Positions 13,399-47,507 of a DNA stretch of 64,000 nucleotides are shown here, piece after piece; within the stretch, counting starts at the first letter, position 1, and every line of letters starts with the position of its first letter. The notes below the pieces were generated by a model that had not been told where the DNA came from, did not search any database, and saw only the letters and a program-made list of their open reading frames with translations. The stretch lies in the IMG/VR virus record IMGVR_UViG_3300042987_001724; one strand, written 5' to 3'. This stretch comes from a virus. Taxonomy: Duplodnaviria > Heunggongvirae > Uroviricota > Caudoviricetes. A program made the translations under genes and the position numbers.

Positions 13399-13411
13399 AA
13401 TTCCGAGAATT
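13399..13411 (+). promoter_or_regulatory. palindromic operator/promoter-like element AATTCCGAGAATT
   Basis: One of four near-identical copies of AATTCCNGGAATT (others at 26611, 42576, 47490). All lie in intergenic DNA upstream of plus-strand genes. This copy is followed by ATTGCAATTGTCGTGG, resembling ATTGTAATTGTCGCGG after the 26611 copy. Confidence 0.45.
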
Positions 13412-13498
13412 CGCACGGATTCTGTATTGCAATTGTCGTGGCGGCGGCGATAATCACTTTCGTTACGCCAATTCAACCGCGAACGAAAGAAGAACCAA

Positions 13499-13729
13499 AT
13501 GATGACTCAAGAAGATCAGGATTACGAATTCAATTCCTACTACGATCACAAGATTGGCATGTTCGACGCTTTGGACCCACAAGCCGAAGCTGAGTCGGAC
13601 GCATCTTGTGCTGAAGAAGAATGGCGACAACTCAATCCTGCGGAGCGATTCGTCCGAATTTCCCAGTTTGAGCGAACGATGCTCAAGTATGCCAGCACTG
13701 CAAGCTACGGGGCAGATGTCCCGTTCTAG
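13499..13729 (+). CDS. hypothetical acidic protein
   Basis: 76-aa ORF downstream of the palindromic element. Confidence 0.4.
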   Translation: MMTQEDQDYEFNSYYDHKIGMFDALDPQAEAESDASCAEEEWRQLNPAERFVRISQFERTMLKYASTASYGADVPF

Positions 13730-13803
13730 GACGAAACGGGAGCAATCCCGTCTGCCAGTTACGCTGGCACTGATGAGTCCGACCGCCAGCAAGGATCGCC
13801 ACC

Positions 13804-14184
13804 ATGAAAACGAAGGCCACAAAGCACGATCTTGAGCGAGAAATCGCTGACCTGAAATCGCAATTGAAGGCCGTTCGTAATGAAATGGCCGTTTTGGAGG
13901 AAACGAATTACTCCAGATATATTCCATTTGGCCCGAAACTCGAACTTTATGACCACCCATTCGAGAGCGATATTCGCAACGCCGTCAGCAGCCAATTCGA
14001 CGGACGAACCGGATGGGTTGTTGTTGAACTCGGCAGCGATCACCCTTTCCGCTTCGTGTTGGTGAACGTCAGTTACACCAACGAAGATGGGACTTGGGTT
14101 GACAGCGGATTCTACAGATTGGCCCGCCAGACTCGCGAGCGAGATTATGATAAGAACGTATGGGGCGAATGGGTGAACAAATAG
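13804..14184 (+). CDS. hypothetical protein
   Basis: 126-aa ORF with an N-terminal coiled coil. Confidence 0.5.
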   Translation: MKTKATKHDLEREIADLKSQLKAVRNEMAVLEETNYSRYIPFGPKLELYDHPFESDIRNAVSSQFDGRTGWVVVELGSDHPFRFVLVNVSYTNEDGTWVDSGFYRLARQTRERDYDKNVWGEWVNK

Positions 14185-14286
14185 TCAGCCGGAGCGATCA
14201 GAAATGTGCGAAGAAAACCCGGAATTCAGAGACTCCTCCGAACTTGTCATGCGAGAGCATGGTGATATCGCAATTGATAACGTGAA

Positions 14287-14511
14287 TTGATCCAAATGAG
14301 AAAGCGTAAAAGCTGGAACGAGCAGATATGCTCAATCGAAAACAAGGGATACTCTGCCTTCACGAGCGGCCAGCCTATTGAATCCAATCCGTATGTCGGC
14401 GGACATCGCAATCAAAACGGGAGCGGTGGCCAGTTGCAGAGACAACGGGGCTATGCGTGGTCGCGAGGCTGGAGGCTTGCGGAATCAGAGTCCCAAGAGA
14501 AACCCGCGTAG
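14287..14511 (+). CDS. Rmf-like (ribosome modulation factor-like) small protein
   Basis: KGYSAFTSGQPIESNPY..RQRGYAWSRGWRLAE aligns to the Rmf core (RGYQAGIAGRSKEMCPY..QRSQWLGGWREA). Paralogous to 52485..52715. Confidence 0.4.
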   Translation: MIQMRKRKSWNEQICSIENKGYSAFTSGQPIESNPYVGGHRNQNGSGGQLQRQRGYAWSRGWRLAESESQEKPA

Positions 14512-14563
14512 CGACTGAATCCGCCGCGCGGTAAAATCCACGGCTAAACTGCAAGGAACCCGA

Positions 14564-16489
14564 ATGTCTGCATCGTCACGATTTTCGCCACAGGACTGGG
14601 AGGCCACTTTAGTCGCCTGCCACTACCATCCAAAGCACGTCAAGGAACTGATGAAGCTGAGGGACGACATGCACGACTACGAAATGCACGTCCACCGGCT
14701 AGCAACAGATCCGAACCATAAAGTCCCGGACCCGCCGAACGTGACGATGCGACTCGGGCAGATCATTGGTGATGATGCCATGCGGCAATTCAGCCGCGAC
14801 GACGAATCCCCGCTCGAACTCGCCTGCCGACTCTCTGGGATCGGCCCGGCTGATGTTATCGCGTCTCTACCGTCGGAATTCAGCCGCCAGTTAGACGATA
14901 TCGGCCCCGTTGAATTCGGCCAGAAGTCGTTTGACTGGGACGAGACTGCGGTACACCGGGAAACGTCCGCTCACGACGGGAAAAAGCCCGGCGAATTCGC
15001 ACCAAAGCATGACTTCCCCGCAATCAATGCCGTGAAAGACGAATACAAGTTTCCGGAACGGCTGAATAAGCTGACTGCGATTCTGGATGCACATCAAACC
15101 GGAGATGTCCCGAAGGCTCAGTTCGAAATGGCCAAGAGCCACCTCAACTGGATTAAAGACGCAAAACGCCATTTGCTCGACTGGATGCACGCGGACCGAG
15201 ATGGGGATACTGATGCCGAACACCCACCAATGTCTCCAGCAGAAAGCGAGGCGGTTCGTGAGGCGTATTATGGATTCAACAAGAAGTCCATCAAGGCACT
15301 CGAAAAGCTGAACTCCGACCACCCAGCGGTAAAATACGCTCTCGCTCTGAATGCGGAACTGGACAAACTTGGCTCGCACATCGAATCCATGAAAGACAGG
15401 GTTGTCACGGCGGCACAGCAAAGGGAAGCCAAGAAAGCCGCAGCGGTTCGCGCCGAGAAGTCGAAGCCAGTGACCTCACTTTCGAAGGTTGTTGCCGAGG
15501 CGACTGAAACACTTCGCCCACAAATGACGTCCTTCTTTAAGCGAGTAATGACTGATCGGTTGAGTCTTCTGAATCGCATGGTTGACGAATACAACTCACA
15601 AGAGATTCCAAAGTCCACCGGGATTAGACTCACCAAGGAAGAACGAGACGCAGAGGAGTCCAGAAGCCGAAAATGGAAAAGCATCCAAGTCCTGTTCTCT
15701 GAAGTGCGAAACTGCCTGAGCGCTGACGCATCGGTGATGGAGGGAAACCACAAATTCGACGATGCTCGACTCGAAAGCCAGTCCAACGCATACGCCACGG
15801 GAGTCATCGAAGGGATGAGGTCCAAGATCAACCAAAAGCTGGAGGATCTTGACGACGCCAGCTTTAGGCATGCCAGCGGCGGCGAAAACACATTCGGATT
15901 GCACGGAACTCGCGACGGAAAGAAAGTCGAGATTCAGCAGAGCGTAAAATGGAACGTATCGTCTCTCGGGAACCCATTCAATCAGTATCCGGCCCTGATC
16001 TACGTTGACGGCAAGAGCGTATCTGAGGCGAAGTACAAAAGCATGTTCAGTCAGAAACCTGAACATCCGTCAAGTGAACCGGAGAAGCCAAAAGGCTCTG
16101 CACAGTCATTCATCTCTACCGTGCGGGAAATGGGATACAAAAACCCATTCTCCAATGAGACAGTTGTCGGAAACGCCGCCGTAGAACTGCACGCCAGCCC
16201 GGACGGATCGGTCTGGTTGAAAAGCATTCGGGCACTGACGCCGAAAAAAGGCGACGGCAGCGCAATGCTGAAGCAACTCACGAAACTGGCGGATGAAAAC
16301 GGAGTCGAGATCAAGGGCGAAGCGGTCCCATTCGGCAAGAGCATGAGTGCTGCGAAGCTCAAGAAATGGTACGTCGCCCACGGATTTACGCTGAACGGAG
16401 AAGAGTTTACCTACACGCCAACTCCACGATTGAAGATCGGCAGCGGACCCATGCGATCAATCCCAATCGAACAGCCGGAGCAAGAATAG
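14564..16489 (+). CDS. polyvalent protein 1 (641 aa) with linker module and C-terminal GNAT-like domain
   Basis: Contains RQFSRDD and SEFSRQLDDIGPVEFGQKSFDWDETAVHRETSAHDGKKPGEFAPK (module). C-terminal GNAT motif A-like LKSIRALTPKKGDGSAMLKQL. Ends EEFTYTP plus tail. Confidence 0.8.
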   Translation: MSASSRFSPQDWEATLVACHYHPKHVKELMKLRDDMHDYEMHVHRLATDPNHKVPDPPNVTMRLGQIIGDDAMRQFSRDDESPLELACRLSGIGPADVIASLPSEFSRQLDDIGPVEFGQKSFDWDETAVHRETSAHDGKKPGEFAPKHDFPAINAVKDEYKFPERLNKLTAILDAHQTGDVPKAQFEMAKSHLNWIKDAKRHLLDWMHADRDGDTDAEHPPMSPAESEAVREAYYGFNKKSIKALEKLNSDHPAVKYALALNAELDKLGSHIESMKDRVVTAAQQREAKKAAAVRAEKSKPVTSLSKVVAEATETLRPQMTSFFKRVMTDRLSLLNRMVDEYNSQEIPKSTGIRLTKEERDAEESRSRKWKSIQVLFSEVRNCLSADASVMEGNHKFDDARLESQSNAYATGVIEGMRSKINQKLEDLDDASFRHASGGENTFGLHGTRDGKKVEIQQSVKWNVSSLGNPFNQYPALIYVDGKSVSEAKYKSMFSQKPEHPSSEPEKPKGSAQSFISTVREMGYKNPFSNETVVGNAAVELHASPDGSVWLKSIRALTPKKGDGSAMLKQLTKLADENGVEIKGEAVPFGKSMSAAKLKKWYVAHGFTLNGEEFTYTPTPRLKIGSGPMRSIPIEQPEQE

Positions 16490-16492
16490 CCA

Positions 16493-19400
16493 ATGTCGCT
16501 CGAATCCGACCTGCAAACCGTACTCGGTTCATTTGTGGAAGTTTCCACGCCAATTCCTTTCTCAAGAACCGCCGCACCGGGGCAGAAACGTCTCTGGAAT
16601 GAGGCCGATGTCAGCCGGGAGTCCGAAGCCCATGAGGGGAAGCGCCCCGGCGAGTTCGCCCCGAAGCCACATGAGGGCACTGTTGACATCGGGAACGGAG
16701 TGTCGCTTAAAACTCATCCGCCAAAAACACACGTTATTAGGCCCGGCAACCAGTACGACACCCATTATTGGGAGGCCATAAAAAACGGAGAGACCATCGG
16801 CAGCGGGAGATATGCGAACTACGGAACCGCAACCCAGCCACTGGAGGTATCGGTGAATCCGTCGCATCGCGGTCAGGGAGTTTATTCGTCGGTGTTGGCG
16901 GAACTAAATCGCCGCGCGACTGTAATCCCGAACGACCTAAGCGTAAGCACTGAAGCAAAAAGGGCGTGGAACAGATTTCGAAAACAAACCGGAGAGCAAC
17001 CACAGTTCCCAGAAGCTATGACTCCGCAAGAGAAAAAGTCAAAAACGCCAGCCGGTCAGAATCTCCTGTTCGACTCCGGCGTCAGCGATCAGCCCGTAGC
17101 GAAGCCAGCCCCGCAACCGAGTGAGTTGGAGAAGATTGACGACGAGCAGAAGAAATCGAAGATTGCTCCGGTCGAAGGGCAGAAAGAGCTATTTGAGGGT
17201 GGATTGGAGCCTGTTCATCACCACGTCGCGAAGCGATTCGGGATTCCCCCGCACGCCGTCAAGAGCCTGATGGAATCCGGCGTGCCAGAATTGCGACGCC
17301 GCGACGAGTGGCTAGCTGAGAGTAATGGGGCTTCCCCGCAAACCGGGTTCGAGACATTCCCTCACGGCACAGCACGGATCAACCAATTCGGCGATCCCAA
17401 CGAATCCTACGTTGATTACATGACGGAATTCAGCCCGCACGATATCGAGCCGACGGAACCAGAGGACGGAATCAAGAAAAGCCAGACGTACAAGGATTAC
17501 GTCCAATGGGCGAAGGCGGGCCACCAGCCTCCCCCGGTCAGTGTGTTCAGTAGTAACAATGGCAACGGGAAACTGTTGACCTCAAGCCGCCGCAGAACGC
17601 TGGCCGCACGAGAGGCGGGAGTCGCAAAGATTCCAGCATGGCACGGACCCTATAACCCTGAAACCGGCAACCCGCTGAAATACGGTGACGTGATGAAGGC
17701 CGTAAACGAGTTCCACTCTCAGCAGTTTTCGCGAACGCTCAATGAAGTCACCCCGATAGAGTTCTCTGTCGCTGCTCCGCCACGTAAACGTCGAGTTATC
17801 GACGACAAGCGAACTCGCGAAGATGTTGACGAAGACGAAAAGGTATTCGGCAAGAAAAAACGAATCCCGACCGATGGTAACAAACCAGAAACCGGCTGGA
17901 CGAAAGTCGGTGGCAGCACGGTCCACGTCAACGATGATGGCGTCATCGACAAAGGCTGTCCCGGATTGAAGGGCGAGGAAGTCGAAGACCTGATTGACGA
18001 ATCCGACGAATCCCGCGAACGCCGCGAAGCCCGGCAGGCATACGCTCGCGCCGCTGGCATCACCGGAGATCAGATCACAGCCGAGCAAGCAAAAGCGATG
18101 GGGAGCGATGCTCACGTCGAAGGAATGAAGCAAGCCAAGGCAGTAGCGGAAGCAGATCCACGCCCAACAATCGGCACATCTGACGTTCTCCGTGGAGTGG
18201 ACGACCAGACCGGAGAGCTAGCCGGGAACGGTCACGAGCTTCTGCAATCCAACAATCGTGAGCACCCAGAATCCAACGAGCAATTCGAGGGAACTGGAAT
18301 GCCGTCGCCGATGAAGTTCATGGACGACGAAGACGAAGGCACCCGCCCGCAGTGGATGGGACCGAAGTTGTCGGAGATGGTCCCGATTCCGCCACGACCG
18401 AAATTCCTGCGAGATCGTGAGCCGCTCGACCACGATGCCGCAGCACAGTACCAGCCCCAGATTGACAAACTTGAGGCGGATATCGCCAAATGGCGAGATG
18501 CTCGCGACGCGATGAAAAAAGGCCGCGACGTCGGCCAATTCGGGCTTTCTCCAGAACAGAAAACCCCAGAATACGCCGATGCGCAAATCAAAGCACTGCA
18601 AGGACCGCTGGGGAAACTGAAACGGCAGTTGTCTGACTACCGGATGCGATCAACTCCAAACCAAAATCCAGCAACGCAGACATGGACCTCGCTGGACTCC
18701 GCAGCAGAGGGAGCGTCATCAAAATTCGGAATCCCAATTCACCACATTGTCGAAGCCATGCCGGATGCGTATTTATTCCGGCTGGCGCAGTCGATCGAGC
18801 ATGAATCGCTCAAAAAGGCAGCACGCAAGAAACTGCAAATGCACGCCGGTGATTTGGCAAGAATCGAAAACCAGCATTCCGACTGGTCTGATGTCCCCCG
18901 CTTCGACGAGGCTTCCCGAGAATTCGCGTCAGAAAACCCCGGTGCAGGTCTGGACCCATACGCCCACGATACGCCAGACAAGGTGTGGAGCCTGATCCGT
19001 GAGGGCGCGACGTCGATGCCAGCCAAGGACTCCCCGGAAATCGCAGAGCTTGCCGCACAGATGATTTCTGGCGACTACAATCGGAAGCCGCTGGAGTTCA
19101 CGTCAGAAGATGACCATGACGATCATGGCGACGATTTTTCAGATGACTGGGGAGGAGAACACGGCGACACGTCATTCGATCCGAATTCGTTCAGTCGATG
19201 GATACTCAATGCCGGTCCCGTGGAGTTCGCCCGCGTCAGGCCCGCCCGCAATCAATCTGCGTTCAATTGGGATGAGGATGCCCACCCCCGAGAGGCCACT
19301 GTACACGACGGAAAACGACCGGGAGAGTTTGCCGCAAAGCAGGGAGTCGCCGCGCCGCAGGAGATCGACCACGAATCCGACTACAAGCAGAACGGAACCC

Positions 19401-27052: not shown

Positions 27053-30000
27053 ATGCTTCCTTCAACCGCGTATTTGCTTTCCGACGCTTTTCGGCAGTCC
27101 ATTCAGTTTTCTACGGTGACGCCAGCGGCCCCTCACTCGCCAGTCCAGCACGCGACGATTGACCACAACACATTGAGCCATGCGGAGTTGGCGAACGCAG
27201 TAAAAACAGGCGGTCCGCACCAATTTCATGAATCAGAGCTTCCCAAGATCGGAATGCGGCTACGGAAGTCCGGCCAATTTTCAGCGGCAGACATCGTGGA
27301 TAACCATGCCAAGGCAATTCAGGCCGCGAAACAGCCCCCCGCCGCGCCTGTCGCCCAACGGCCAAATCTCCCCGCCTACGCTGGGGTTCTGTCGCCGAAT
27401 CGCAAAAAAGCCGTCATGGATTTTGTCAATCACGCGAATCCTGACGTTCAAAAGCATGTTGCCGATCATCAGGTCCACGTCCCCGGACTGACGCCCAAAG
27501 AAGCCTACGTGCGAGCACAGAAAGCCTACGACACATTCCATGCCGCGCACATGGGCGTTCCGCTGGCGACTCCTACCGCTTCACAGCCGACGGCAGCGCC
27601 GCAGTCAGCCCAACAATCGCCACCGCAGCCCGGAGTCTCTGCCTCTGCTCCACAACCAGCCGAGGATAAGGGTTCCGATTGGGATCTATGGAAAAACAAG
27701 GGGAGTCGGCCTCCGTTGAGTAGCCAGCAAAGGGCGGCGATTGGTCGGAAAATGGGGCTGACTGTCGGAACGCCAGAGGATGACGCACATCTCCCGAAGA
27801 CTATGCTGAACATCAGAAGTGATTATGCGGCGAACGCGGTAAAGGAGGAGGAGCCGGCGTACCAAAAGCCACTCATAGACCCCTCAAAGTACATTCCAGA
27901 TCGAAATGACCGCCTGCGATTGCGGACAATGGAAGCATGGGCGTTCAAGACTCCAGAGGGAAAAAAGGCTTACGATGAGTCCGGGATTGAAAAACTTGGA
28001 ATGGGGAAGCAACACACAGAGGCATTTCACCAACTTTACGACAAGTATCATTCCGGGCAGCAATCCGCACCCCCAGCGACACAACCAGCGAAGCAAACCC
28101 CGGCAGACGTCGCGAAGATGCACGCCGAAGCCGTCCGCAGTGGTCGCCCGGTCCCACCGCAGTATCTTGATCGCGTTCAGAAAAACCTGCGAGCACACGG
28201 CTACCATGCCGAGGCCGATCAGATCGCCCCGAAACAGGATGACGCGGCCTATGCTGCCGATCAGTTCGGATCGGGAACGATTCCGGCAACAACCGGGATC
28301 ACCGGCGCGGGGATGAAACGTCCCGGAGCACCTGCCCCGCAGAGATCGTTCTTGAATGACGAATCCACTGGCAGTCCAGCTAAATTACCGCCACGCCGCC
28401 CCGCACCAGCAAGCACGCCAGCCGAACAGCTTCCCGCCCCGAAGTTTGGTTACAGCACCCACACCGCACCGGCTGGAGTTGTCCCCGGAGAGCAATCAGA
28501 ACAACAGCCATCAACCCACGGTCGATTCTCCAGACTTCTCGACGCCGCGCGGCAGGGAAAGTTGAAAGAACACGTCGAAGGCGGTTTAGGGAACTTTTTT
28601 GACAAGTTCGAGCGACACGGCGGTAAACTTCTGAAAAAGATCGGCATCGACACCGGCTACAACGAGCAGGAATACAGCCGAGTTTCCGTAGCAATCGCCA
28701 ATCTGAACGATATCGTCCAAGAGTTCGCACGGAAATCCGATCCGAACCAGATGAGCTTATTTGGCGGTGACGAAATCGCACTGGCAACGGCCCCAAAGTC
28801 CAAGACCAGAAATCTGCGAAAGCCCGCCCCCGGTCAGAAGTCGTTCAATTGGGACGAAGATAGCCACCCTCGCGAAAAGGATCATCACGACGGGAAGCGG
28901 CCCGGAGAGTTCGCTCCAAAGGAATCCGGACACACATCAGCCACGAAACAAGAGCCGGAACCTGAAGAATCAGCCGAAAAACCGGAATCGGAACAGAAGC
29001 CGGACACGAAGCGGACATATTCGGCCAAAGGAAACGAGGTCCACGACGCCGACGGTGTCCGCCACGGCGCATTCCGCAACGAAGAAAAAGCGAAAGAGGC
29101 CGCAGAGCGATGGAACCGGGAAGGGAAACCAAACTCGACCCCAGCGGCGAAAGCTGTCGAAGCGACGTTCCCTTCACTGGCGGGATATGTGGAGCCGGAA
29201 TCGCCTCGCGAAGAACTCAAGAAGATTGCCGATGAGCACTTGGCGAGCGAGATTCCACCGGCACAGAATCCAGTTTCGGGACCAAAAGCAACCGACGGAA
29301 CAATTCCCGGACTGGAGCCAGAAAAGCCGAGCGAGACCCCACGGGAAGCCGCTGAACGGCAACAAAAGGCACTGGACGCCGATTACGAATTCGCCCGACA
29401 ATCCGCCGTCCGAAACGCAGGAGAAGACTTGAAAGGATCGGCAAGGCACAAGCGAAACGCTTGGCAAGGGCTTGATGACGCCGAAGAGAACGGAACCGCC
29501 GCAGAATTGGTGACTCGCGACAATTTACTGAAAGCCGAGCCTCACGACCTGATGTCGGCAGCAGATGAAAACCCGCGAACTTCTCTGGCTGGTTATTTCG
29601 CCCTTCGATCTTTTCCCGCAAAACCGGGTTCGACATCGAAACGTGTTCGCATAGACGAAGAGACCGCTAAGAAAGATCGCCGACAGTTCTTGGAGACATA
29701 CAGGCAGTACAAATCGAAGATCGAAGAACTGGCAAAAACAGAGCCAGATCCCGCAAAGGCCATCGCAGAGATTCGTGGCTGGGTTGGTAAAAAAATCAAT
29801 GAATTGCGGGGGATTGAAAAGAACAGGTCAGACTATATGGCCAACGCAGGGTTGATTGGTGACGACAAGTACAACAACACAGCGAATGGATTGGTCGACA
29901 CGTACAAGTCGCTCGGACACAGGAAAACTGGCGTTGCTTCCCGGCTACAAGACTTCGACTTCCTTGCTCGCGAAAAATACGGTTCAGAAAAACCAAGCAC

Positions 30001-31058: not shown

Positions 31059-34000
31059 ATGGAACCCGGTTTCCTTGCCGCAGTCGATATTCTGGTCAAT
31101 CACTACCTCCCTGAATCCGAGTTCGCCCGCAAGTCGGCACCGAATCAACTTGGATTGTTTGGTGAGGACGAACTTGCCGCAGCCGTGGCCCCGAAGTCTC
31201 GCGCCCGGAATCTGCGAAAACCAGCCAAGGGGCAGATGGCTTTCAATTGGGATGAGGATTCGCACCCCCGAGAGGCGACTGTACACGACGGAAAACGACC
31301 GGGGGAGTTCGCGCCGAAGGAACACGCAGAGGCGGCGAAGGTCGCAGAGATGTACCCGTCCCTGAAAGATGACGTGGAGTCAGAGCCTGATGAGGAACAG
31401 CCGGAACCGGAACCAGTGGCGACTCACGCCGAACCGATCGTTCACAATGGCCATCAGATCGAACCGAAAGTCAGCAAGTCTAGCGACGGCACCGACGAGC
31501 ACTACGCACACTGGAAGAAAAACGGATCATGGGAAGCCGGAGTCACCAACTCGCACGGCAGCAGGGAAGAGGCGATTGAATCCGCGAAAGCGATGATCGA
31601 CGAATCCAATGATTCGAAGCAGCCCGCGAACCCATTCCGCGAAGAAGCCGACAGAATCAGGGCGAAAGCCGATCAGCTTGCGGGTGGAACAGCACACGAC
31701 AAGGCGATGGCATCGGCCTTCATTCTCGGCACCGGACGCCCCGGAAACGCATCGTCACAGCGAACAAGCCGACAGGCTGAGAAACGCATCGACGCAAGTA
31801 TCGACCGGGCATTGAAGGCCACCGAACTGTACGGTAAGGCGAAGTCAGTGGAGGCAAAAGCGGCAGCATTCGACAATGGGCAGATTGACGCCAACGGGAA
31901 TCCAACAGAGAAAGCCGTGGCGGCAAGTGAAGCCCGAAAGACCGCAGCGGACGGAGCAAAGCAGCAAATTGCCGACTACTTGAAGGGAACACTGAAGCCG
32001 GGAGACCTGATCGACATCGGCGGGAATGGTCCGGTTGCAGTGCAGAAGGTCAATAAAACGACGGTGACATCCGAAGGTGGATCGAAGTGGAAGTTCGACG
32101 ACATCACTCCTACGGAAAACGGAAAGCCAATTTCAAGATCCGAGTTTGCGAAGCGAGTCAACGCATTCCACGCCAGCAATGATCAGCCCGCAACTGAGGC
32201 CGCACCGAATCCGATCACAGAGCAATTCCCGTCCCTAAAGGGATTCACAGAAGAACCGAAGCCAGCGGAAGCACCCGCCGAAACCAAAAGCGTCTGGCAG
32301 CTTCCTTCGGAACAGTTCGATGCGATGCTTGAAAAGCAAGCGAATGGTAAAGCACCAGAGGACTCCGGCCCACTCACGCTAGCAAAACTCGACGAACGCA
32401 AGGAGCGCATCAACACCGGGAAAGCAACAGCCGACGAAGTTCGGCAGTGGCACAAGGAACTCAGCGACCCCGCCAATATCGAGGCCATAAAGGCGGAATT
32501 CAACAAGCAGTCCGTCGCCGAATTGAAGTCGAAGGGCGGGACTGGGTACTACAACCGACAAAAGAAAGCCGATCTGATCGAGTCAATCATGGATCACATC
32601 GGCGACGAATACGACGTATCCCCCGGAGGGCTGTCGTATGTGATGAGTCCGGGCGGGAGTTTAATGAAGTCCAAGCAGGCCGCACTTCAGAAAAAACTCG
32701 CCGGATTGACTGACCAGCACATTGCCGATCACGCCGCGAAATTGTCCGGCGCAGTGGCAAAAAGAGAGGAAGCAAGCGAAGCGGTCCAAGAGGGAATCAA
32801 GAATCCACAGACGCTCGACGACTTCCGAAACGCGGTTCGCCATTATGGCGGTTATGCGAACATGCCGGAAGATATCCAAGTGGCGTTTGATGAGTTCGCT
32901 GCGAACCGACGGCGAGAGACTGCCGCACAGTCGAAAGCGAAAGTCACCGGGTTCAGCGGCGGCACCGAAGCCACTGGCGCAACCTCAATCGTCGAAGGTC
33001 ATCACCAGAAGAAAAACGCCCCAACCTACACCGTCACCGTTGAAAAGCATTTGGGCGATGGGTGGGGTGACGCACTGAGTCGAGCACGTCAACTCGGCGG
33101 AAGCTACGTCAATGGGTGGACAGCCAAGGCATACAAGGCAACGCCCGGCTTCCAATTCTTCAATCGGGCTGATGCGGAGAAGTTCCAAAAGTCGCTTGGC
33201 GGTGAGGAAGTAGACCGATCCGACCGTCTGGACGAAAAGAACATCGCCCGGATGGATAACGCATCGGAACGACTGGCCGCACTGTCCGAAGCCACGAAGA
33301 AACGTGCCGAAGAGAAGTTAAACGCACCGCGACAGACGAACACGCACCGCCGCGCCGAACACGCCGCAGGAGCACAGGCACAGGCCCGGTCCGAAGCAGC
33401 CAAGGCGGAAACCATGCAGCGGATCTCCGAAGGGCTGTCATCCGGATCGTTGAAGCATCTCGGCGGAATCCGCGCCAGAACCCACGTTGATACGCTCGAT
33501 TCTCTTCTGCACAACGCGAAGCTGAATGCGTGGCGAGACTCGAAATCGACGTCACAGGATTCCTACGAAGAAATGCGGGAACGTGACGCCACTTCGCAGG
33601 ATATCGCCAAGGCGAAATATCCGTACCCAAGGATTTGGGATCACGAACTCGCCGAACACCTCGACGAGTTATCGCAGATTCCCGGACTGAAGAACATCGC
33701 TCGCGACCTGAAGAGGTCTACAGAGAAATCCCCGTACAAAAAGAAGATCGGCAAGATTTCCATCAATGGCGGTGAAGCCAAGACGGCGGACCAATTGGCA
33801 GATATCCCGCTGGCCCGAGGACTCGTTAAAGACAAGGCTGTCCGAATCCACGTCTCCCAAGATCCGACACTACTGAAGGGACGACACCCAGTCGCCTACA
33901 CAGCCGACGGCGGGAAGACTTGGGGCACGACTCAGGACATCGCCGTTAGCGCAGCCGTTCACGGAGAAATCAACGGGACCAGCAAGCTCGACCTGATCGA

Positions 34001-39363: not shown

Positions 39364-39624
39364 TTGACATTTCAGCAGAAGTTTCTAACATACTTCCAGT
39401 GATAGAAATCGCCGTCCAATACGGTCGGCGTCTTGCTATTTCGGGAGTTCTGAGATGTTCGAATACTGGTTTTCACGGTGGGTGAACACCGACGACGGCA
39501 GCAGGATGAGAAATCCGCGTGGCTCCGCGATGTACCCCAAGCACATCATCCGCCAGATGCTGGAATCCGCGTTTAACGCCGGGGCAGCAATGAAAGAGGC
39601 GGAACTGGCTGCGGGGGCGACGGC

Positions 39625-41396: not shown

Positions 41397-41936
41397 ATGT
41401 CAGAAACCGACGAAAACGAACCCTCTTCTGCTCGCCCGAATGAGGGGTTGGGAAGCGATCCGCTTCATGGCTTACTTCTTGACCCAAACAAGGTTAGGTC
41501 GGACATCCGGATGCTGGCCCACGCCTTCAAGGGGAAAGGCCCGCCGTCGCATCACATTGAGGAGATCTGGAATCGGTTGATGCTCCACCTGCGGACCGAT
41601 GCTGTCCGTGAGATCGACCCGGAAACCGGGATGAACATCGTCAACGAGAAGATGGGGGCGGACATCTCGATCAAGGCTGCTGGCATGCTTGGCCGCTTCC
41701 TTGAGATGTTCGTGAAGGACGAGCAATTGGCGCTGGGGATGATGGAAAAGGAAGCCGCCAAGAGCACGACGATCAACATTGGCGCCATCGGTTCGATTTC
41801 GATGGGGCAGGAGCCACTGACGCCAACTGACGCCAAACTACAGGCGGAGGACATCTTGCAGCGGGTGTTGAGCCGGACGAAGCAGCCGGAGCCGGTGCGG
41901 GTTGAGAATAAATTGGACGATCTGAGTTCTATCTGA
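41397..41936 (+). CDS. hypothetical protein
   Basis: 179-aa ORF with clean composition. Confidence 0.5.
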   Translation: MSETDENEPSSARPNEGLGSDPLHGLLLDPNKVRSDIRMLAHAFKGKGPPSHHIEEIWNRLMLHLRTDAVREIDPETGMNIVNEKMGADISIKAAGMLGRFLEMFVKDEQLALGMMEKEAAKSTTINIGAIGSISMGQEPLTPTDAKLQAEDILQRVLSRTKQPEPVRVENKLDDLSSI

Positions 41937-41946
41937 GGGGAGCTAG

Positions 41947-42204: not shown

Positions 42205-42207
42205 TAT

Positions 42208-42543: not shown

Positions 42544-42575
42544 AACGCCTTGCGTCAAAACTGCGAAATAACGCT

Positions 42576-42593
42576 AATTCCGGGAATTATCTA
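42576..42593 (+). promoter_or_regulatory. palindrome AATTCCGGGAATT + ATCTA abutting a start codon
   Basis: Third copy of the element. The trailing ATCTA overlaps the ATG at 42593. Confidence 0.5.
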
Positions 42594-42934
42594 TGGCTCG
42601 AAAACTCGATTCAACGATCACCGTCACCTTGAGCTTCCCGGCGTTGCTGTCGATGCTGGCTTCGATTCGTGGCGGCGGACTCGCCCGGATCAACGGAGAC
42701 CTTCCGTATCCACCCGACGGGGCGAAGCAAATCATTCTCCCGAAGATCGACATCGGTATCCCGCTCCCGGAAGGCTGCGAGGTCGTTTCGGCGAGCAGCA
42801 ATGGCGACTACGTCAATGTAACGCTCTGGCATGAATCGTTTGCGGGAAATCACCGACAAATACCACTTACTGCGATTCGGCTGCTGTGCATTGACGTACA
42901 ACGACAGCGAGCCATCCCGGCGAGAATTACTTGA
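42593..42934 (+). CDS. hypothetical protein
   Basis: 113-aa ORF starting immediately at the palindromic element. Confidence 0.45.
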   Translation: MARKLDSTITVTLSFPALLSMLASIRGGGLARINGDLPYPPDGAKQIILPKIDIGIPLPEGCEVVSASSNGDYVNVTLWHESFAGNHRQIPLTAIRLLCIDVQRQRAIPARIT

Positions 42935-43027
42935 TGGATTGGAACGAACTTACCCAACTTCGACTTGATTTGTGGAAGTTTCTGGTAAAATGCCATCAAG
43001 ATAGCGTCATTCGGGGGATGAAAAATA

Positions 43028-44259: not shown

Positions 44260-44506
44260 GACGTATACGCCACTCGCCCTATCTCCCGGAATGACCGTTG
44301 AGCATCACGCAAACTGCTCTCTGATCGACGATCAGTGCGATTACGAGGAATGCCAGATCGTCAGGGAAGACGCGGGTTGACCAATGAACGGTTACGATCT
44401 TGGCAGTGCGGCGGCAAGGGGAATTCTCGCGTTGATCGTCGGCGCGATGATTTGCGGGGCGGCGATGATGGCCGTTGTGGTTTGGGTCGGAATGTCGATC
44501 CTGTCC

Positions 44507-45181
44507 CTAGCTTCGCGAACTATCCGGAAACTCCGGAAGGTTCAGCATGTACCGCCAGCCTTCGACGAGCCACATCACAAACGCGGCTGAATCTTCGCCG
44601 TACCATCCGCAGGCATATGGATGATGGCTTTCGACGAGAGCGATCTGCCCGGTTGAGAGTCGCCCGAAGTCAACGGCACCGCAGAAGCCTTTCGGCCAGT
44701 CGATGTTGAGTTCCGGGGCTGGTTCGAGTTCATCGTCACCGTCATACCATCCAGTTTCGAGAACGCAGCCATCAGCGACGTAGTATCGCCACTCCTGAGT
44801 GAACTCGACGACTTCGGACAGGTAGAGACAGCCCGGCGGATACTCTTGCGAATCTTCGACGATTTTCGCGGGGAACGCCTTGTATCGTTCGGCAGACTTC
44901 ACGAACCAATCGCCAAGGAATCTCGCCCCGCCGGTACGGATTCCCCACCGACGGTGCATCCAGTCATGAAGGAACACCGGGTAGAAATCAGGCGTCGGGT
45001 TGTATCCCAGACAGTCTTCGCAGTAGTCGACGCTACCGACCGGAGTCTTCCCGATTGTCGTTTCCGGGTTCCCCCAGCCGACTTGATAGCCGAGCTTCCG
45101 TGCGCCTTCGATCGCCTTGACGGCTTCGCGGCTCGATCCGTAGCCAGTCTCAAGCCAGAGTGTCGTCATGTTCAGGTCCAT
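44507..45181 (-). CDS. hypothetical protein (possible ATP-grasp-like fold)
   Basis: 224-aa ORF. Weak resemblance to ATP-grasp C-terminal regions (GARFLGDWFVKS.., VDFGRLSTGQIALVESHHPYACGWYG). The functional call is low confidence. Confidence 0.35.
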   Translation of the reverse strand: MDLNMTTLWLETGYGSSREAVKAIEGARKLGYQVGWGNPETTIGKTPVGSVDYCEDCLGYNPTPDFYPVFLHDWMHRRWGIRTGGARFLGDWFVKSAERYKAFPAKIVEDSQEYPPGCLYLSEVVEFTQEWRYYVADGCVLETGWYDGDDELEPAPELNIDWPKGFCGAVDFGRLSTGQIALVESHHPYACGWYGEDSAAFVMWLVEGWRYMLNLPEFPDSSRS

Positions 45182-45295
45182 GCCAGAAGTTTTCCATCGC
45201 AGATTGCTGGATCGCGAAATACCGTGCCGCGCCTGTTTGGTCTCGCCATGCCAACCATTCGATGCACCATTCCTCGTACTGGTAATCCAGTGTCG

Positions 45296-45637
45296 TCACT
45301 TCATTTCCTCCACCCATCGAACCAGCATCTGCGGACTGAACCGGCACGGATGATCGGGATACGCTTCCCGAAGCATTTCAGACGCCCGGTACGGTTTGAT
45401 AGATCCATCTGCAATCCTCGCCAGCATCGCCACGGCTTCCGCTGGTGGCTTCTTTCGCGGTCGTCCGGAGTTTCCCTTGGCGGCGAGTCCCGCCCGGCTG
45501 CGGTTCGCCTGTAGCGTTTCCAGATTGGCGCGGAGATCCAGCAGGAGAGAGCGGAGTTCACCCCGGATGGAATTTCCGAGCTTGTCCACCTTGGTAATGG
45601 CGGAGTCGATGCGAGCGATCAGTGGATGTGGTTTCAT
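45296..45637 (-). CDS. hypothetical protein
   Basis: Internal Met with GGAGGTGA RBS (MKPHPLIARIDSAI..). First of a tightly coupled minus-strand series. Confidence 0.45.
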   Translation of the reverse strand: MKPHPLIARIDSAITKVDKLGNSIRGELRSLLLDLRANLETLQANRSRAGLAAKGNSGRPRKKPPAEAVAMLARIADGSIKPYRASEMLREAYPDHPCRFSPQMLVRWVEEMK

Positions 45638-45794
45638 TTCACCTCCCCGGATTCCGGAATTGGCTGCTGTTTCCACTCACGACCGACGAGCTTGAATGAG
45701 GCGACGTCATCTTCGTCGGAATAAATCTCGATCCTCAGCGATCCATCCCGGTCGTCAATGCAGAGAAACACACCGTTCGGCCTCATGAATGTCA
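45634..45794 (-). CDS. small hypothetical protein (about 52 aa, not in ORF track)
   Basis: MTFMRPNGVFLCIDDRDGSLRIEIYSDEDDVASFKLVGREWKQQPIPESGEVK. ATGA overlaps at both ends. Coordinates are approximate. Confidence 0.3.
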
Positions 45795-46007
45795 TAGTTC
45801 GATGTTCTCGTCCTCATCCGCGATGATCTCGTCGATCTGCCGTTTCGCTTCCTCAAAGCTCGGGGCTGTCCCGCATCGTTCATCCGGAGGCCCATCGTAG
45901 TCGACGTGAGCGAACTGGTAGTCCCATGCTCGCGTCGGTACTGGTGGCGGATCGTAGCTGATTTTGTAGTCGCGATAGACTTCAGGGACTCGGTGAAATT
46001 CTGTCAT
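45792..46007 (-). CDS. hypothetical small protein
   Basis: 71-aa ORF, ATGA-coupled. Confidence 0.4.
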   Translation of the reverse strand: MTEFHRVPEVYRDYKISYDPPPVPTRAWDYQFAHVDYDGPPDERCGTAPSFEEAKRQIDEIIADEDENIEL

Positions 46008-46243
46008 TGCGATTCCTTTTCATCCATAACCTTGACGGACCATGCGGAGACATCTCCGGGAAGATGCGACTCCGCTTCCTTTTGTGCGGCCTCGATTGAC
46101 GGCCTACGGATGCGACCATTCAGGACAAATCCGTTCAGTGAAAGCGTCCAGTTGTAGCCAGTCTGCTTGCTGCGGCGAATTCGGATTGCATAGACATCCG
46201 CACCGGCTCCGGTTTCGAGTTCAGGGTTTTCCGTGTCGTTCAT
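46004..46243 (-). CDS. hypothetical small protein
   Basis: Internal Met start (MNDTENPELETGAGADVYAIRIRR..) gives an ATGA overlap with the upstream gene. The long ORF-track 5' extension is Arg/Pro-rich low-complexity. Confidence 0.4.
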   Translation of the reverse strand: MNDTENPELETGAGADVYAIRIRRSKQTGYNWTLSLNGFVLNGRIRRPSIEAAQKEAESHLPGDVSAWSVKVMDEKESQ

Positions 46244-46443
46244 GGCGAAACCTTTTCGAGTTTGTGGTAGATCGCTTCTGGGATGCAAATCCGCGCCCCG
46301 CGATAGATGTAGAAGTAGACGGAACCGACGCCGTGTTTCTTGTCGCCGATGTGTGCGTTCACTTCGCGACCGTCGGACAATTTGACGCGGCCCCGGCGGC
46401 GGATGTTTTTCAGGCGGATCGTGAGGATAATTTCGTCTGTCAT
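46240..46443 (-). CDS. hypothetical small protein
   Basis: 67-aa ORF, ATGA-coupled. Confidence 0.4.
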   Translation of the reverse strand: MTDEIILTIRLKNIRRRGRVKLSDGREVNAHIGDKKHGVGSVYFYIYRGARICIPEAIYHKLEKVSP

Positions 46444-46667
46444 TTCGCCACCAATTCAACTTCAATTCCACCCGGAAACCGAACTCGCCCACCCCAGTCA
46501 AGGTCGAGGGCGATCACCCCGGTCGCATCGCCGGGTTCGTCAGCAACTCGCCTGTATGTGTGGCAAGGACCGCACATACCACGAGCAATAAATTCATCAC
46601 CTTGAGCGAGTTCACTAGCCTTCATCATCATCTCCTTGTCGCGGGTGCCTGTTGCCTTCATCGTCAT
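46440..46667 (-). CDS. hypothetical small protein with CxxC
   Basis: Internal Met (MTMKATGTRDKEMMMKASELAQGDEFIARGMCGPCHTYRR..) overlaps the upstream stop by ATGA. Confidence 0.4.
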   Translation of the reverse strand: MTMKATGTRDKEMMMKASELAQGDEFIARGMCGPCHTYRRVADEPGDATGVIALDLDWGGRVRFPGGIEVELVAK

Positions 46668-47161
46668 TCTCCGTTCGTTTCTTCGAGATCCCGGCAGTCG
46701 CTGCACACGAGGCCGGTTTCCCTTTCCTCTTGGTTGATGTATCCCGCTGACCCGTCCTTGCGGACATACTCGCCCGTTCGGTTGCGGCTGAACTTCCCGC
46801 ACTTCGAACAGTGACGGAGGCTGGCGGCTGGTTTCTTTTTCGATTTCAGACTGTTCGATCGTTGGGGCATGCCGAGTTGCATGCGACGCGCCCGGTCTGC
46901 GGCGAATGTCCCGATCTTTTCCCATCGTTCGTCAGGGAACTCGATTCGCAGTCGGTCGTAAAGCTCGTAAATCGCCCGGTCGTAGTCATCGTTCGTTCCG
47001 GGAAGAGGCAGTTCAAACCCGCTACTCCGCGCGAATCCGACCATCTCGGGCCGCGTTACGCGATAGGATGGAGCAACATCCAGCACAGACTTCGATGGCG
47101 TCCGGCTGCGAAACCTGCGATCCGTTTCATCGACAATCATTTTGATTTGGTCTGGTGTCAT
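46664..47161 (-). CDS. hypothetical protein with C-terminal Zn-ribbon
   Basis: 165 aa, with CSKCGKF..CSDC at the C-terminus. Confidence 0.45.
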   Translation of the reverse strand: MTPDQIKMIVDETDRRFRSRTPSKSVLDVAPSYRVTRPEMVGFARSSGFELPLPGTNDDYDRAIYELYDRLRIEFPDERWEKIGTFAADRARRMQLGMPQRSNSLKSKKKPAASLRHCSKCGKFSRNRTGEYVRKDGSAGYINQEERETGLVCSDCRDLEETNGE

Positions 47162-47418
47162 TTCGGATTCCGTTCGTCGACAATCTTCTGAAAGTTGGAA
47201 TCGACGGCTGCGATGCAGTTGCCGGTTGCGCCCACCAGTTCAATCAGGGCGGAGCGGAGGCTTCCGTACTGACACCGCTTGTCGGACTTCGCCAGCGAGA
47301 CGCCGTGAACCGCTGAAGCGATTTGCTGACGCAGGATCGCGGCACGGGGACCGTAAATTGCGTCCATGTATCGCTGCCCGTTCGTGGCGGAAGATTTCAG
47401 GATCTCGATTGCCTTCAT
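47158..47418 (-). CDS. hypothetical small protein
   Basis: Start at MKAIEILKSS after a GGAGAGGA RBS. First gene of the minus-strand operon. Confidence 0.45.
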   Translation of the reverse strand: MKAIEILKSSATNGQRYMDAIYGPRAAILRQQIASAVHGVSLAKSDKRCQYGSLRSALIELVGATGNCIAAVDSNFQKIVDERNPK

Positions 47419-47489
47419 CGTAATTCCTCTCCATGTTGAGTGACTGAACAACAGGAACAATATCGACCTGTCCCGCTCGCGTCAACAGT

Positions 47490-47507
47490 AATTCCGAGAA
47501 TTATCTA
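47490..47507 (+). promoter_or_regulatory. palindrome AATTCCGAGAATT + ATCTA
   Basis: Fourth copy. Lies in the divergent intergenic region between the minus operon (47418..) and plus gene 47682. Followed ~90 nt later by GAAAAACTTCCGTAGAAT. Confidence 0.5.

Follow-up and report, generated by a model that had tools for sequence, protein, structure and literature searches.

A repeated intergenic palindrome and its position relative to promoter-like blocks in an uncultured phage genome

The repeat and its genomic setting

The window analysed here (the whole stretch of DNA under study, 64 kb) is part of an uncultured phage genome of ~115 kb. Besides an ECF sigma factor and several giant polyvalent proteins, which are probably injected, it encodes a number of candidate small DNA-binding proteins, namely a ribbon-helix-helix (RHH) protein (11163-11354), an HTH_17 protein (48768-49034), a weak helix-turn-helix (HTH) match (55774-56022) and a DUF1580 protein (56266-56661). 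Two homing endonucleases are present, of the HNH (25207-26190) and GIY-YIG (7879-8664) types, and neither an integrase nor an immunity repressor was seen in the window. By a wide margin, the top over-represented palindrome of this sequence is AATTC-N3-GAATT, found in five exact copies starting at 9895, 13399, 26611, 42576 and 47490, as compared to 0.10 expected from shuffled sequences. The initial annotation had recorded the repeat at the last four of these positions, where it is indeed present (hereafter sites 1 to 4, in that order), but had overlooked the copy at 9895. Likewise, its description of a perfect 13-bp palindrome in four copies holds for 26611 and 42576, which match AATTCCNGGAATT exactly (two occurrences in the window, 0.02 expected), but not for 13399 and 47490, where the sequence is AATTCCGAGAATT and the innermost pair is broken.

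All five copies are intergenic, in agreement with the earlier statement that the repeat is restricted to non-coding DNA, and two of them overlap a stop codon by 2 nt. Intergenic DNA constitutes 9% of the window according to the gene map made in this work, and the chance of all five copies falling there is ~6e-6. Copies within coding regions were also sought in six related uncultured phage genomes, which carry the palindrome partly at orthologous and partly at additional positions; 17 distinct sites were found in total, none of them reaching further into a gene than 2 nt of a stop codon. Throughout these 17 sites the arms AATTC and GAATT are invariant, whereas the centre is occupied by six different triplets (CGA, CCG, CGG, CAA, TTG and CTA) and differs even between orthologs, as seen for site 3 with CGG in the window and CGA in the relative L010. 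Invariant arms combined with a free centre is the pattern expected if a dimer contacts two half-sites. Centre to centre, the half-sites are separated by 8 bp, which is short for classical helix-turn-helix dimers. The palindrome was absent from 51 kb of a more distant relative (L021/L009), where another promoter motif is used, and in the genomes compared it is apparently confined to one subclade.

The RNA hairpins that the palindrome could form have predicted energies of -1.5 to -3.4 kcal/mol, with z-scores of -1.1 to +0.8, and are not more stable than those of shuffled sequence, a result in favour of recognition as DNA. For the 9895 copy the best fold (-5.6 kcal/mol) is another hairpin than that of the palindrome. 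An RNA-level element built on AAUUC-NNN-GAAUU (terminator, processing hairpin or translational operator) would agree with the situation at site 3, where the mRNA leader would contain the repeat or begin with it, the AUG being 4 nt away. However, no U-tract follows the hairpin, no compensatory changes are seen in the stem and, in the canonical promoter cassettes described below, the palindrome lies upstream of the inferred start site. This explanation is already disfavoured and scarcely credible.

As the initial annotation had it, ATCTA follows the palindrome at three sites and CGCAC follows at 13399. The copies with ATCTA (26611, 42576 and 47490) have the 19-mer TAATTCCNNGAATTATCTA in common, and the usual extended form of the palindrome is (T)AATTCYNRGAATTATCTA. 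The ATCTA extension occurs in mixed orientation and the core itself is strand-symmetric; a symmetric dimer would leave this strictly kept, one-sided extension unexplained. The claim that all copies lie on the same strand upstream of plus-strand gene blocks can consequently be retained only in part, as the copy at 47490 fits a minus-strand promoter and gene best and that at 9895 precedes a minus-strand gene. No family or database matches were found for the genes adjoining the sites, which are small, variable ORFs.

Two window copies stand directly before start codons. The fifth copy, AATTCCAAGAATT (9895..9907), overlaps the stop codon of the ECF sigma gene by 2 nt; gene 9538-9876 on the minus strand has its ATG (9876) 18 nt downstream of this copy. 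An 820-bp cassette (9085-9904) with the palindrome right at its border is missing from L018 and L019, in which the SSB gene abuts the sigma gene. Site 3 (AATTCCGGGAATT followed by ATCTA, 42576..42593, plus strand) is an exact match to AATTCCNGGAATT, and the final A of its ATCTA doubles as the first base of the ATG of gene 42593-42934. The palindrome thus occupies positions -17 to -5 relative to the start codon and ends 4 nt before it, without a Shine-Dalgarno sequence. The gene is real, as all eight differences from L010 within its first 24 codons fall at third codon positions. Orthologs of site 3 are found at L010:2812, L022:18568 and L024:20023, each with CGA in the centre. A recognisable promoter at the canonical distance was not found at site 3, at the 9895 copy or at a further copy in a relative, L010:6467. 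A single mechanism does not obviously cover these promoter-less copies, nor site 2, which is devoid of a -10 element.

Promoter-like blocks downstream of the palindrome

In the relatives, the palindrome belongs to a canonical cassette composed of the palindrome, ATCTA, TTGCAATTGTCG (-35), N10, CGATAAT (-10), a leader of about 45-50 nt, a Shine-Dalgarno sequence and ATG. The promoter in the canonical copies has the sigma-70-like form TTGCAA-N16-GATAAT and follows the palindrome. In nine paralogous or orthologous copies the blocks TTGCAATTGTCG and CGATAAT are kept and the 10-nt spacer between them varies, and all 14 occurrences of the TTGYAATTGTC block have a palindrome no more than 35 nt upstream. 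The distance from the end of the palindrome to the -35 block is only 5, 15 or 16 nt (ten cassette copies, three loci), the 10-11-nt inserts CGCACGGATT, TTTCCGCAATC and TTCACGCCTCC being unrelated in sequence. Relative to the predicted start site, this centres the palindrome at ~-46 or, in copies with an insert, a full helical turn farther out (~-57). The -35/-10 blocks would constitute a putative active promoter. The sigma-70-like assignment is based on conservation and on an E. coli-type consensus, which may not be that of the host, and sigma-70-like matches in the scanned regions are no commoner than in shuffled sequence. The genes downstream of the cassettes encode small proteins without assigned function as well as polyvalent-protein clusters. 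Several canonical copies are paralogous, and their similarity may in part stem from recent duplication rather than from selection.

Within the window, site 1 carries the full promoter and site 2 the -35 block only. At site 1 (AATTCCGAGAATT, 13399..13411; ortholog L018:8391), a consensus scan located TTGCAA (13427-13432) and GATAAT (13449-13454) on the plus strand, separated by 16 nt (13427..13454 overall), upstream of gene 13499-13729. The palindrome centre is 44 nt upstream of this -10 element, i.e. at ~-56/-57. Site 1 is missing from L019 and L020, and so is the entire cassette 13391-14498, the left edge of which is 8 nt from the palindrome. At site 2 (AATTCCCGGAATT followed by ATCTA, 26611..26628, plus strand, again an exact AATTCCNGGAATT match), the first 2 nt of the palindrome are overlapped by the TAA stop of gene 26310-26612, and the -35 block TTGTAATTGTCG follows at 26629..26640 on the plus strand. 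The -10 element expected ~16 nt further downstream is missing because of a deletion in the window: homology to L018 and L019 stops at ~26641 and restarts at 26682-26683, and the relatives' two small genes are gone together with CGATAAT. Orthologs of site 2 are found at L018:19746, L019:18038, L024:584 and L025:637. The block ATTG(T/C)AATTGTCG(C/T)GG, previously noted after two of the copies, is confirmed at 26611, where it begins 4 nt past the palindrome and overlaps the last A of ATCTA, and at 13399, where it begins 14 nt past it; the segment given there as ATTGYAATTGTCGYGG corresponds to the -35 block of the cassette.

Site 4 (AATTCCGAGAATT followed by ATCTA, 47490..47507; ortholog L025:21538) is located in a divergent intergenic region. 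A leftward sigma-70-like promoter, TTGACG-17-TATTGT, is predicted on the minus strand at 47457..47485, with its -10 element 34 nt from the palindrome centre, a distance equal to that in the canonical cassette. The L025 ortholog of this promoter reads TTGACT-17-TATCTT. The predicted promoter would drive a minus-strand operon from the ATG at 47418, which is preceded by the Shine-Dalgarno sequence GGAGAGG. Thus, the position of the palindrome relative to the -35 and -10 blocks is fixed and kept across genomes at the cassettes and at site 4. Moreover, the 20-mer AATTCCGAGAATTATCTACA is identical at L010:6467 and at site 4 of the window and L025. The gene pairs flanking this island are unrelated, which points to portability of the element.

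The same geometry would be compatible with UP-element-like DNA, the arms (~-52 to -48 and -44 to -40) being contacted by the alpha C-terminal domains of the polymerase and strengthening early host-polymerase promoters without any regulator. In a genome of 55% GC, an A/T-rich stretch directly upstream of the -35 block (e.g. TTTTTTAGAAAATTCCAAGAATTATCTA before TTGCAA) has this character, a shift by exactly one helical turn is tolerated, as is reportedly also the case for the UP subsites of rrnB P1, and the small, variable downstream genes without database matches are typical of early genes. UP elements resemble the repeat in being A/T-rich, in lying at ~-40 to -60 and in tolerating such a displacement; A/T-rich arms at ~-52 to -40 also occupy the position of an UP element. 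However, UP elements are degenerate A/T tracts, whereas the palindrome never varies at the C and G of its arms and is strictly dyad-symmetric in all 17 sites. In addition, the palindrome is found away from recognisable promoters, both close to start codons (4-18 nt, at site 3 and 9895) and between unrelated genes (L010:6467), and its limitation to one subclade, with none in 51 kb of L021/L009 and another promoter motif in that relative, is not readily accommodated. Consequently, we regard an UP element as a rather unlikely explanation.

The initial annotation had also proposed a phage-specific promoter class, with the ECF sigma factor as a candidate, and this part of the proposal was not borne out. 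ECF promoters combine a -35 element containing AAC (GGAAC/GAAAC) with a conserved -10 element (of the CGT, GTC or TCTGA type) after 16-17 nt. No shared -10 element was found downstream of the palindrome at any spacing (sites 1-4 and L010:6467), at the canonical copies an ordinary sigma-70-like promoter lies downstream of it, and its orientation to the genes is inconsistent. Conversely, a separate motif, AAACTTCC-N10-TGTGATCCG, present at 11100, 47604 and 746 (minus strand) and kept in L010, L018 and L025, resembles ECF promoters (sigma-E-type) much better than the palindrome does.

A putative site for a dimeric regulator

The proposal of an operator for a dimeric regulator, likewise made in the initial annotation, is the best-supported reading, given the invariant arms, the intergenic sites, the fixed position relative to -35 and -10, the 10-11-bp spacing variants and the 20-nt island. 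Hence the palindrome is probably, albeit with considerable room for doubt, a duplex-DNA binding site of a dimeric sequence-specific regulator, sited beside bacterial-type promoters at some of its copies. The over-represented dyad is found in non-coding DNA only and keeps its arms while its centre is free. The regulator could be a product of the phage clade or of the host; nothing was found that ties the RHH, HTH_17, HTH or DUF1580 candidates to the palindrome. In the canonical setting the palindrome would then form the upstream end of a portable promoter cassette, and a dimer bound at -46 or -57 would share a helix face with RNA polymerase. Such a dimer may recruit the polymerase (activation, slightly favoured) or hinder its upstream contacts (repression). 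At the stand-alone copies, whether ahead of start codons by 4-18 nt (site 3 and 9895) or between co-directional genes (L010:6467), the protein would bind at the start site or slightly past it, or would act as a roadblock. A system of this type would represent a normal kind of phage gene switch and not a new kind of system.

A self-sufficient, directional phage promoter was considered as well, in which the 19-20-nt unit TAATTCCNNGAATTATCTAY is read in a T7- or N4-like manner by a polymerase or factor that the phage encodes or injects, with transcription starting at the end of ATCTA. The 19-mer is long and strictly kept in three or four unrelated contexts, conservation stops 11-12 nt from the loop centre, and the ATG of site 3 begins exactly at the end of ATCTA, as it would in a leaderless mRNA. 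The dimensions also match the hairpin promoters of the N4 virion polymerase (5-bp stem, 3-nt loop), and the giant polyvalent proteins of the phage are probably injected. Still, neither Pfam nor sequence comparison with solved structures revealed a single-subunit or N4-like polymerase among the window ORFs, and no PDB sequence match to an RNA polymerase was found for the four largest polyvalent proteins. In L010 (6467) and L025 (21538) the unit opposes the local minus-strand genes, its CTA being their stop codon, and site 1, the 9895 copy and the orthologs with an 11-nt insert are without adjacent ATCTA. Furthermore, the loop bases vary, the predicted hairpin has little stability, and the canonical copies have a complete sigma-70-like promoter downstream of the unit. 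Taken together, this makes a promoter of its own quite unlikely.

The indels described above could alternatively suggest a recombination or mobility site, where the palindrome marks, and maybe creates, the 5' ends of exchangeable cassettes through microhomology or as a target of the HNH or GIY-YIG homing endonuclease. Of two clean indels relative to the relatives, 9085-9904 starts directly at a palindrome (0 nt) and 13391-14498 at 8 nt from one, the homology between paralogous cassettes begins at the palindrome, and the 20-nt island has unrelated DNA on either side. However, the recipient junctions in L018 and L019 are without palindrome, so the indels are not palindrome-by-palindrome exchanges. 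Terminal repeats and target duplications are absent, known recombinase core sites would need longer arms, and the most upstream promoter element would be expected at the edge of a minimal self-expressed cassette in any case. A role in recombination is accordingly very improbable.

An unlikely further reading treats the 19-20-nt unit (T)AATTCYNRGAATTATCTA(Y) as a self-sufficient regulatory module, portable within this phage clade, that sets where exchangeable gene cassettes begin at their 5' ends. The factor reading it would be an unrecognised one, perhaps a non-canonical polymerase or a DNA-binding module that enters the cell along with the injected polyvalent proteins. If true, this could jointly explain why the unit abuts stop codons and indel junctions, why an identical island stands between unrelated genes, and why site 3 is 4 nt from a start codon without a Shine-Dalgarno sequence, which would yield a leaderless transcript.

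Comparison with known regulatory sites

Returning to the putative dimer site, the KorB operators (OB, TTTAGCSGCTAAA) of IncP plasmid RK2 are 13-bp palindromes with a free central base, dispersed in several copies that lie a few bp upstream of the -35 in some promoters and at varying distances elsewhere, such that one protein serves many transcription units. The phage repeat has the same length, a free centre and dispersed copies beside the -35 block or at other distances. However, the sequences are unrelated, the replicons differ (phage versus plasmid), and KorB belongs to the ParB family, whereas no ParB/ParBc domain was found by Pfam among the ~75 window ORFs. The operator/dispersed-centromere type represented by RK2 OB and the sopC-like sites of N15 requires a ParB-family protein, and no sign of action at a distance or of a partition role, as for KorB, was seen at the palindrome.

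Activator sites of other phages offer a second parallel. The late promoters of P2/P4 carry an Ogr/Delta dyad at ~-55 and those of Mu a dyad for C and Mor at ~-43.5, with four promoters each in P2 and Mu; a small phage-encoded protein binds these sites, and the promoters are without a usable -35. Here, too, a few promoters per genome have the same dyad fixed just upstream of or overlapping the -35, but in this case the -35 is a conserved TTGCAA, and neither an Ogr_Delta nor a Mor family protein was detected. The controlled genes also differ, being head and tail genes in P2/P4/Mu, and small uncharacterised proteins and polyvalent-protein clusters here. A similarly compact inverted repeat with a 3-nt spacer, GACT-N3-AGTC, is found in the C-boxes of restriction-modification controller (C) proteins, where a helix-turn-helix dimer binds beside the -35 or over part of it, the occupied site deciding between activation and repression by the same protein. 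C-boxes form a tandem pair at one operon, in contrast to the single sites at several loci observed here, and no C protein of the Xre type was found.

The stoperators of mycobacteriophage L5 and other cluster A phages are 13-bp sites as well, asymmetric and orientation-locked, numbering ~24-30 in L5 and bound by the immunity repressor of a temperate phage. By analogy, an immunity-type repressor bound in short co-directional gaps could act as a roadblock and silence read-through. Five of the six independent contexts of the palindrome are indeed short gaps of 29-114 nt between co-directional genes, several copies abut the stop codon of the upstream gene, and site 3 and the 9895 copy are without a promoter of their own. 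Conversely, the integrase and immunity repressor of such a phage were not seen in the window, and the fixed -46/-57 promoter geometry is foreign to stoperators; such stoperator-like roadblock sites are distinctly improbable. The resemblance to stoperators is thus one of size and of scattering in short intergenic gaps along transcription units, whereas the phage palindrome is symmetric, with its ATCTA extension in mixed orientation, and occurs in five copies per 64 kb rather than in tens with a known repressor.

Palindrome copies in the window and in related phages

In an exhaustive count of palindromes in the window (arms of 5-7 nt, spacers of 0-6 nt), AATTC-N3-GAATT showed by far the strongest over-representation, with five exact occurrences vs 0.10 expected from dinucleotide-preserving shuffles. 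The initial annotation had described four copies of one 13-bp palindrome, at 13399 (site 1), 26611 (site 2), 42576 (site 3) and 47490 (site 4). A repeat is indeed present at all four positions, but the exact sequence AATTCCNGGAATT occurs only at 26611 and 42576 (two copies vs 0.02 expected), whereas the copies at 13399 and 47490 read AATTCCGAGAATT, one mismatch away. An additional copy at 9895, AATTCCAAGAATT, also has one mismatch to AATTCCNGGAATT, and AATTC-N3-GAATT is the part common to all five. The ATCTA described after three copies was borne out by the 19-mer TAATTCCNNGAATTATCTA common to 26611, 42576 and 47490, and so was the second block after two of them, as ATTGYAATTGTCGYGG is found at 26628 and 13426, downstream of the palindromes at 26611 and 13399. 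The earlier placement in non-coding DNA likewise held for all five copies (chance ~6e-6, with intergenic DNA making up 9% of the window in the gene map used here); at two of them a stop codon is overlapped by 2 nt.

The window belongs to an uncultured phage of ~115 kb; a 100%-identical copy of its 2899-aa protein lies on a 115,069-bp JGI contig, and neither the GenBank phage collection nor IMG/VR gave a match to the window. To gather relatives, the terminase, the 2899-aa protein and the DarA-like protein served as protein queries, and contig look-ups followed; queries of IMG/VR with the PhoH and KOW proteins returned nothing, or only a common 58-residue domain. Among the resulting loci, L017 is identical to a part of the window, L018, L019/L020, L010/L011/L022/L023, L024 and L025 are syntenic but mosaic relatives, and L009/L021, L015, L016 and L014 are more distant. 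The palindrome core is present in all sampled syntenic relatives and absent from the 9-51 kb sampled of the distant ones, whose terminases are 70% (L009 and L021), 76% (L015 and L016) and 87% (L014, sampled as one 9-kb contig) identical to that of the window. Window and relatives together hold 17 palindrome sites of distinct sequence, 17/17 of them intergenic. The recurrent palindromes of the distant loci lie in genes or are themselves G+C-rich terminator-like hairpins, and thus no co-evolving alternative operator was found among them.

The predicted promoter cassette and operator

The full cassette is found at four sites in the relatives (given as locus:position), namely L025:637, which is orthologous to site 2, and L022:13930, L024:14289 and L025:14202, which all lie directly after the DarA-like gene. 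Its order is AATTCYNRGAATT, ATCTA, TTGCAATTGTCGCG, N8, CGATAAT, ~45-50 nt, AAGGGG or another Shine-Dalgarno sequence, and ATG. TTGCAA-N16-GATAAT is a predicted sigma-70-type promoter, and a consensus scan reports it at site 1 of the window (13427-13454). The -35 and -10 blocks are strictly conserved and the intervening spacer differs in nearly every copy, which argues for constraint on the blocks and not mere recent duplication. The extended -35 sequence TTGYAATTGTC has a palindrome ≤35 nt upstream in 14/14 of its occurrences in the data set. Furthermore, only three distances separate the palindrome end from the -35: 5 nt in the canonical copies, 15 nt at site 1 in the window and L018, and 16 nt at site 2 in L018, L019 and L024. 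The extra 10-11 nt are unrelated in sequence (CGCACGGATT, TTTCCGCAATC, TTCACGCCTCC); the length has therefore been kept, and the sequence not. As the insert amounts to one helical turn, a bound protein would still lie on the same DNA face relative to RNA polymerase. ATCTA is invariant wherever it directly abuts the palindrome, and degenerates to GTCTA, ACCTA, CTGTA or CAGTA where the insert splits it off.

Because the palindrome is a dyad with invariant arms and a free centre, is confined to intergenic DNA, is phased beside a conserved promoter and persists as an island independently of its flanks, we favour, with moderate confidence, its prediction as the binding site of a dimeric regulator, in keeping with the operator proposed initially. 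If transcription starts ~7 nt after the -10, the palindrome would span about -52 to -40. With its centre at about -46 or -57, always on one face of the helix, a bound regulator would be placed much as an activator is; repressors such as KorB can also act from directly upstream of the -35, and at copies that coincide with or follow the inferred starts (site 3 and 9895) repression would be the more natural outcome. A symmetric dimer does not account for the one-sided ATCTA. Less likely readings of the element are an UP-element-like upstream promoter sequence and stoperator-like roadblocks. Alternatively, the repeat could be a self-sufficient directional promoter for an unseen polymerase, against which stands the result that none of the ~75 window ORFs matched a phage RNA polymerase; nor did the four largest proteins give a PDB sequence match to a polymerase. 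An RNA element, such as a hairpin or terminator, is disfavoured by the weakness of the element hairpins, which are no better than those of shuffled sequence.

The initial annotation had also considered a promoter class for the phage ECF sigma factor (9906-10475, minus strand). This did not hold, as no common ECF-type -35/-10 arrangement exists downstream of the palindrome, and an ECF promoter reading of GGAAT-N-GTC fails on its spacing and its lack of a common -10. A second conserved motif upstream of operons, (G/A)AAACTTCC-N10-TGTGATCCG, is a better candidate for this sigma factor than the palindrome, judging by its resemblance to sigma-E/ECF promoters (GGAACTT-N16-TCTGA). It occurs in the window at 11100-11130 (+), 47604-47632 (+) and 746-716 (-), preceding the RHH gene at 11163, the gene at 47682 and a minus-strand unit near 700, respectively, and in the relatives at L010:6970, L018:5844 and L025:22421. 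Two further readings of sequence around the palindrome were rejected. For an opposite-strand -10 in TAGATAAT, visual inspection of sites 2 and 4 gave no acceptable -35, although the scan pairs it with TTGAAT-17-GATAAT at site 3; at all of these sites its transcript would enter the upstream gene in antisense direction. TTATCTACA as a DnaA box matches in the site 4 type only (8/9 positions), and was treated as coincidence.

In working principle, the palindrome is closest to the dyads at the Ogr-dependent promoters of P2 and the C/Mor-dependent promoters of Mu, to the compact C-boxes of restriction-modification controller proteins, and to the KorB OB sites of RK2, likewise dispersed 13-bp palindromic operators. 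Homologs of ParB, Ogr/Delta, Mor and C proteins were not detected, which places the element outside these families; the ~75 window ORFs include no detected ParB/KorB-like protein, and a small CxxC...CxxC protein (26310-26612, its stop overlapping site 2) is reminiscent of Ogr but gave no family match. Pfam, PHROGs and NCBIfam assigned no family to the genes flanking every site. Candidate binders in the window are the RHH protein (11163-11354), an HTH_17 protein (48768-49034), a weak HTH match (55774-56022) and a DUF1580 protein (56266-56661); alternatively, the gene for the binder may lie in the host or in the phage genome beyond the window. Cassette patterns gave no match in IMG/VR, and the two A/T-rich matches in GTDB genomes are attributed to chance and unrelated to the window, as are the six exact 19-mer matches in IMG/VR (L001-L006), none of which resembles it; no prophage or host was found by this route, and literature searches returned nothing relevant. 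The element is a predicted clade-specific phage operator inside a promoter cassette, an expected kind of phage control element.

Individual sites and cassette boundaries

Site 1 carries a full cassette of the +10 type, predicted to drive the next gene (13499-13729). At 13407-13420 the right palindrome arm doubles as the left arm of a degenerate dyad, AATTC-GCAC-GGATT, which occupies the canonical position beside the -35 and hints at overlapping or tandem binding sites. At site 2 the canonical palindrome, ATCTA and -35 block are present, and homology to L018/L019 ends at ~26641 and restarts at 26682-26683, with CGTGGT at the expected -10 position. Two small genes and the -10 have therefore been lost from the window, and this copy may be crippled. 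The palindrome of site 3 lies at -17 to -5 relative to the ATG at 42593. The gene that follows is considered genuine, because its first 24 residues are identical in L010 and 8/8 nucleotide differences fall at third codon positions. The 92 nt upstream, non-coding in L010, are more conserved than the gene itself; a weak TTGCGT-17-GCTAAT, found by eye, would put the start inside the palindrome.

At site 4 the scan finds a leftward TTGACG-17-TATTGT (47485-47457), with 34 nt between the palindrome centre and the start of its -10, just as in the canonical cassette. This predicted promoter would serve the minus-strand operon starting at 47418, and its ortholog in L025 reads TTGACT-17-TATCTT. In L025 and L010 an upstream 133-aa gene on the minus strand ends in the CTA of ATCTA, read as its TAG stop; only the last ~50 nt of this gene are left in the window. 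L010:6467 carries an identical 20-mer, AATTCCGAGAATTATCTACA, between two genes unrelated to those of L025, and is therefore a conserved island in foreign surroundings. The 9895 copy shares 2 nt with the sigma factor stop codon, precedes the start codon (ATG) of a minus-strand gene (9538-9876) by 18 nt, and forms the very edge of an 820-bp cassette (9085-9904) missing in L018 and L019. Similarly, block 13391-14498 is cleanly absent from L019 and L020, its left edge 8 nt from the site 1 palindrome. A recombination or homing site at cassette edges is a less likely explanation, in favour of which stand these clean insertions relative to L018/L019, each of which begins 0-8 nt from a palindrome.

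In the operator reading, one common site appears to join several cassettes made up of small genes without known function, and would also link the downstream polyvalent-protein clusters if these are co-transcribed with them. The promoter cassette would also explain where genomes of the clade break and recombine. In combination, this maps, in a form that can be tested, the predicted regulation of an uncultured phage lineage of ~115 kb with giant polyvalent (Dar-like, anti-defence) proteins as its hallmark. The map is of practical use in annotation, in work on how polyvalent-protein and accessory-gene cassettes are controlled, and in the choice of EMSA or DAP-seq probes.

Further motifs and gene content

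Inverted repeats GGAAGTT...AACTTCC at 39364-39393, 49290-49314 and 59914-59938 form a third motif family. One copy overlaps the -10 of a TTGACA-16-TAACAT promoter directly after the DarA-like gene, where L022, L024 and L025 carry a palindrome-type cassette; promoter cassettes have therefore been swapped at this position. Another copy lies directly upstream of the major capsid gene. The distant relative L021 has its own repeated, non-palindromic intergenic motif, TGAAWTGGGGATTGGCGTAGTA (4412-4466, 4806-4933 and 28091-28155, the last also carrying GCGTAGTAG), probably the promoter type of that lineage. Its 2656-aa polyvalent protein (20120-28090) has precomputed Pfam matches to Sigma70_r2, T2SSF_N, LPD1 and ART-PolyVal, so that virions of this lineage may bring in a sigma-like module.

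Further window genes encode PhoH, SSB, GIY-YIG and HNH endonucleases, the large terminase, a decoration protein and the major capsid protein. The GIY-YIG/NUMOD3 endonuclease gene (7879-8664) is missing from L018, and the HNH endonuclease, with a C-terminal helix-turn-helix region (25207-26190, minus strand), lies between two polyvalent-gene clusters. The DUF1580 assignment (56266-56661, minus strand) is a weak match. This Pfam family is typical of Planctomycetes (Rhodopirellula), and the match, the only pointer of its kind, hints at a planctomycete host; a literature search on this point yielded nothing.

In L009 (9468-11587) a 179-aa protein, probably the small terminase, immediately precedes the large terminase. 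In the window its gene (41397-41936) lies ~8.3 kb from the large terminase gene (50243-51913), and the variable cassettes in between contain, besides sites 3 and 4, genes for a GNAT acetyltransferase and for an R2K ATP-grasp protein. ART-PolyVal, LPD1, methyltransferase and DarA_C domains occur in the four or five giant polyvalent proteins that the window encodes; on the coding strand of their genes, AT skew is very strong at 14000-40000 (A over T, 0.22-0.35), and it is near zero elsewhere in the window. A coding module, ~FNWDEDxHPRExxxHDGKRPGEFAPK, is repeated six times in four of them (14927-15007, 16616-16665, 19259-19339, 20879-20928, 28841-28921 and 31239-31319) and may be a linker, cleavage signal or packaging signal between modules; a short EFSR/EFAR motif recurs throughout these proteins.
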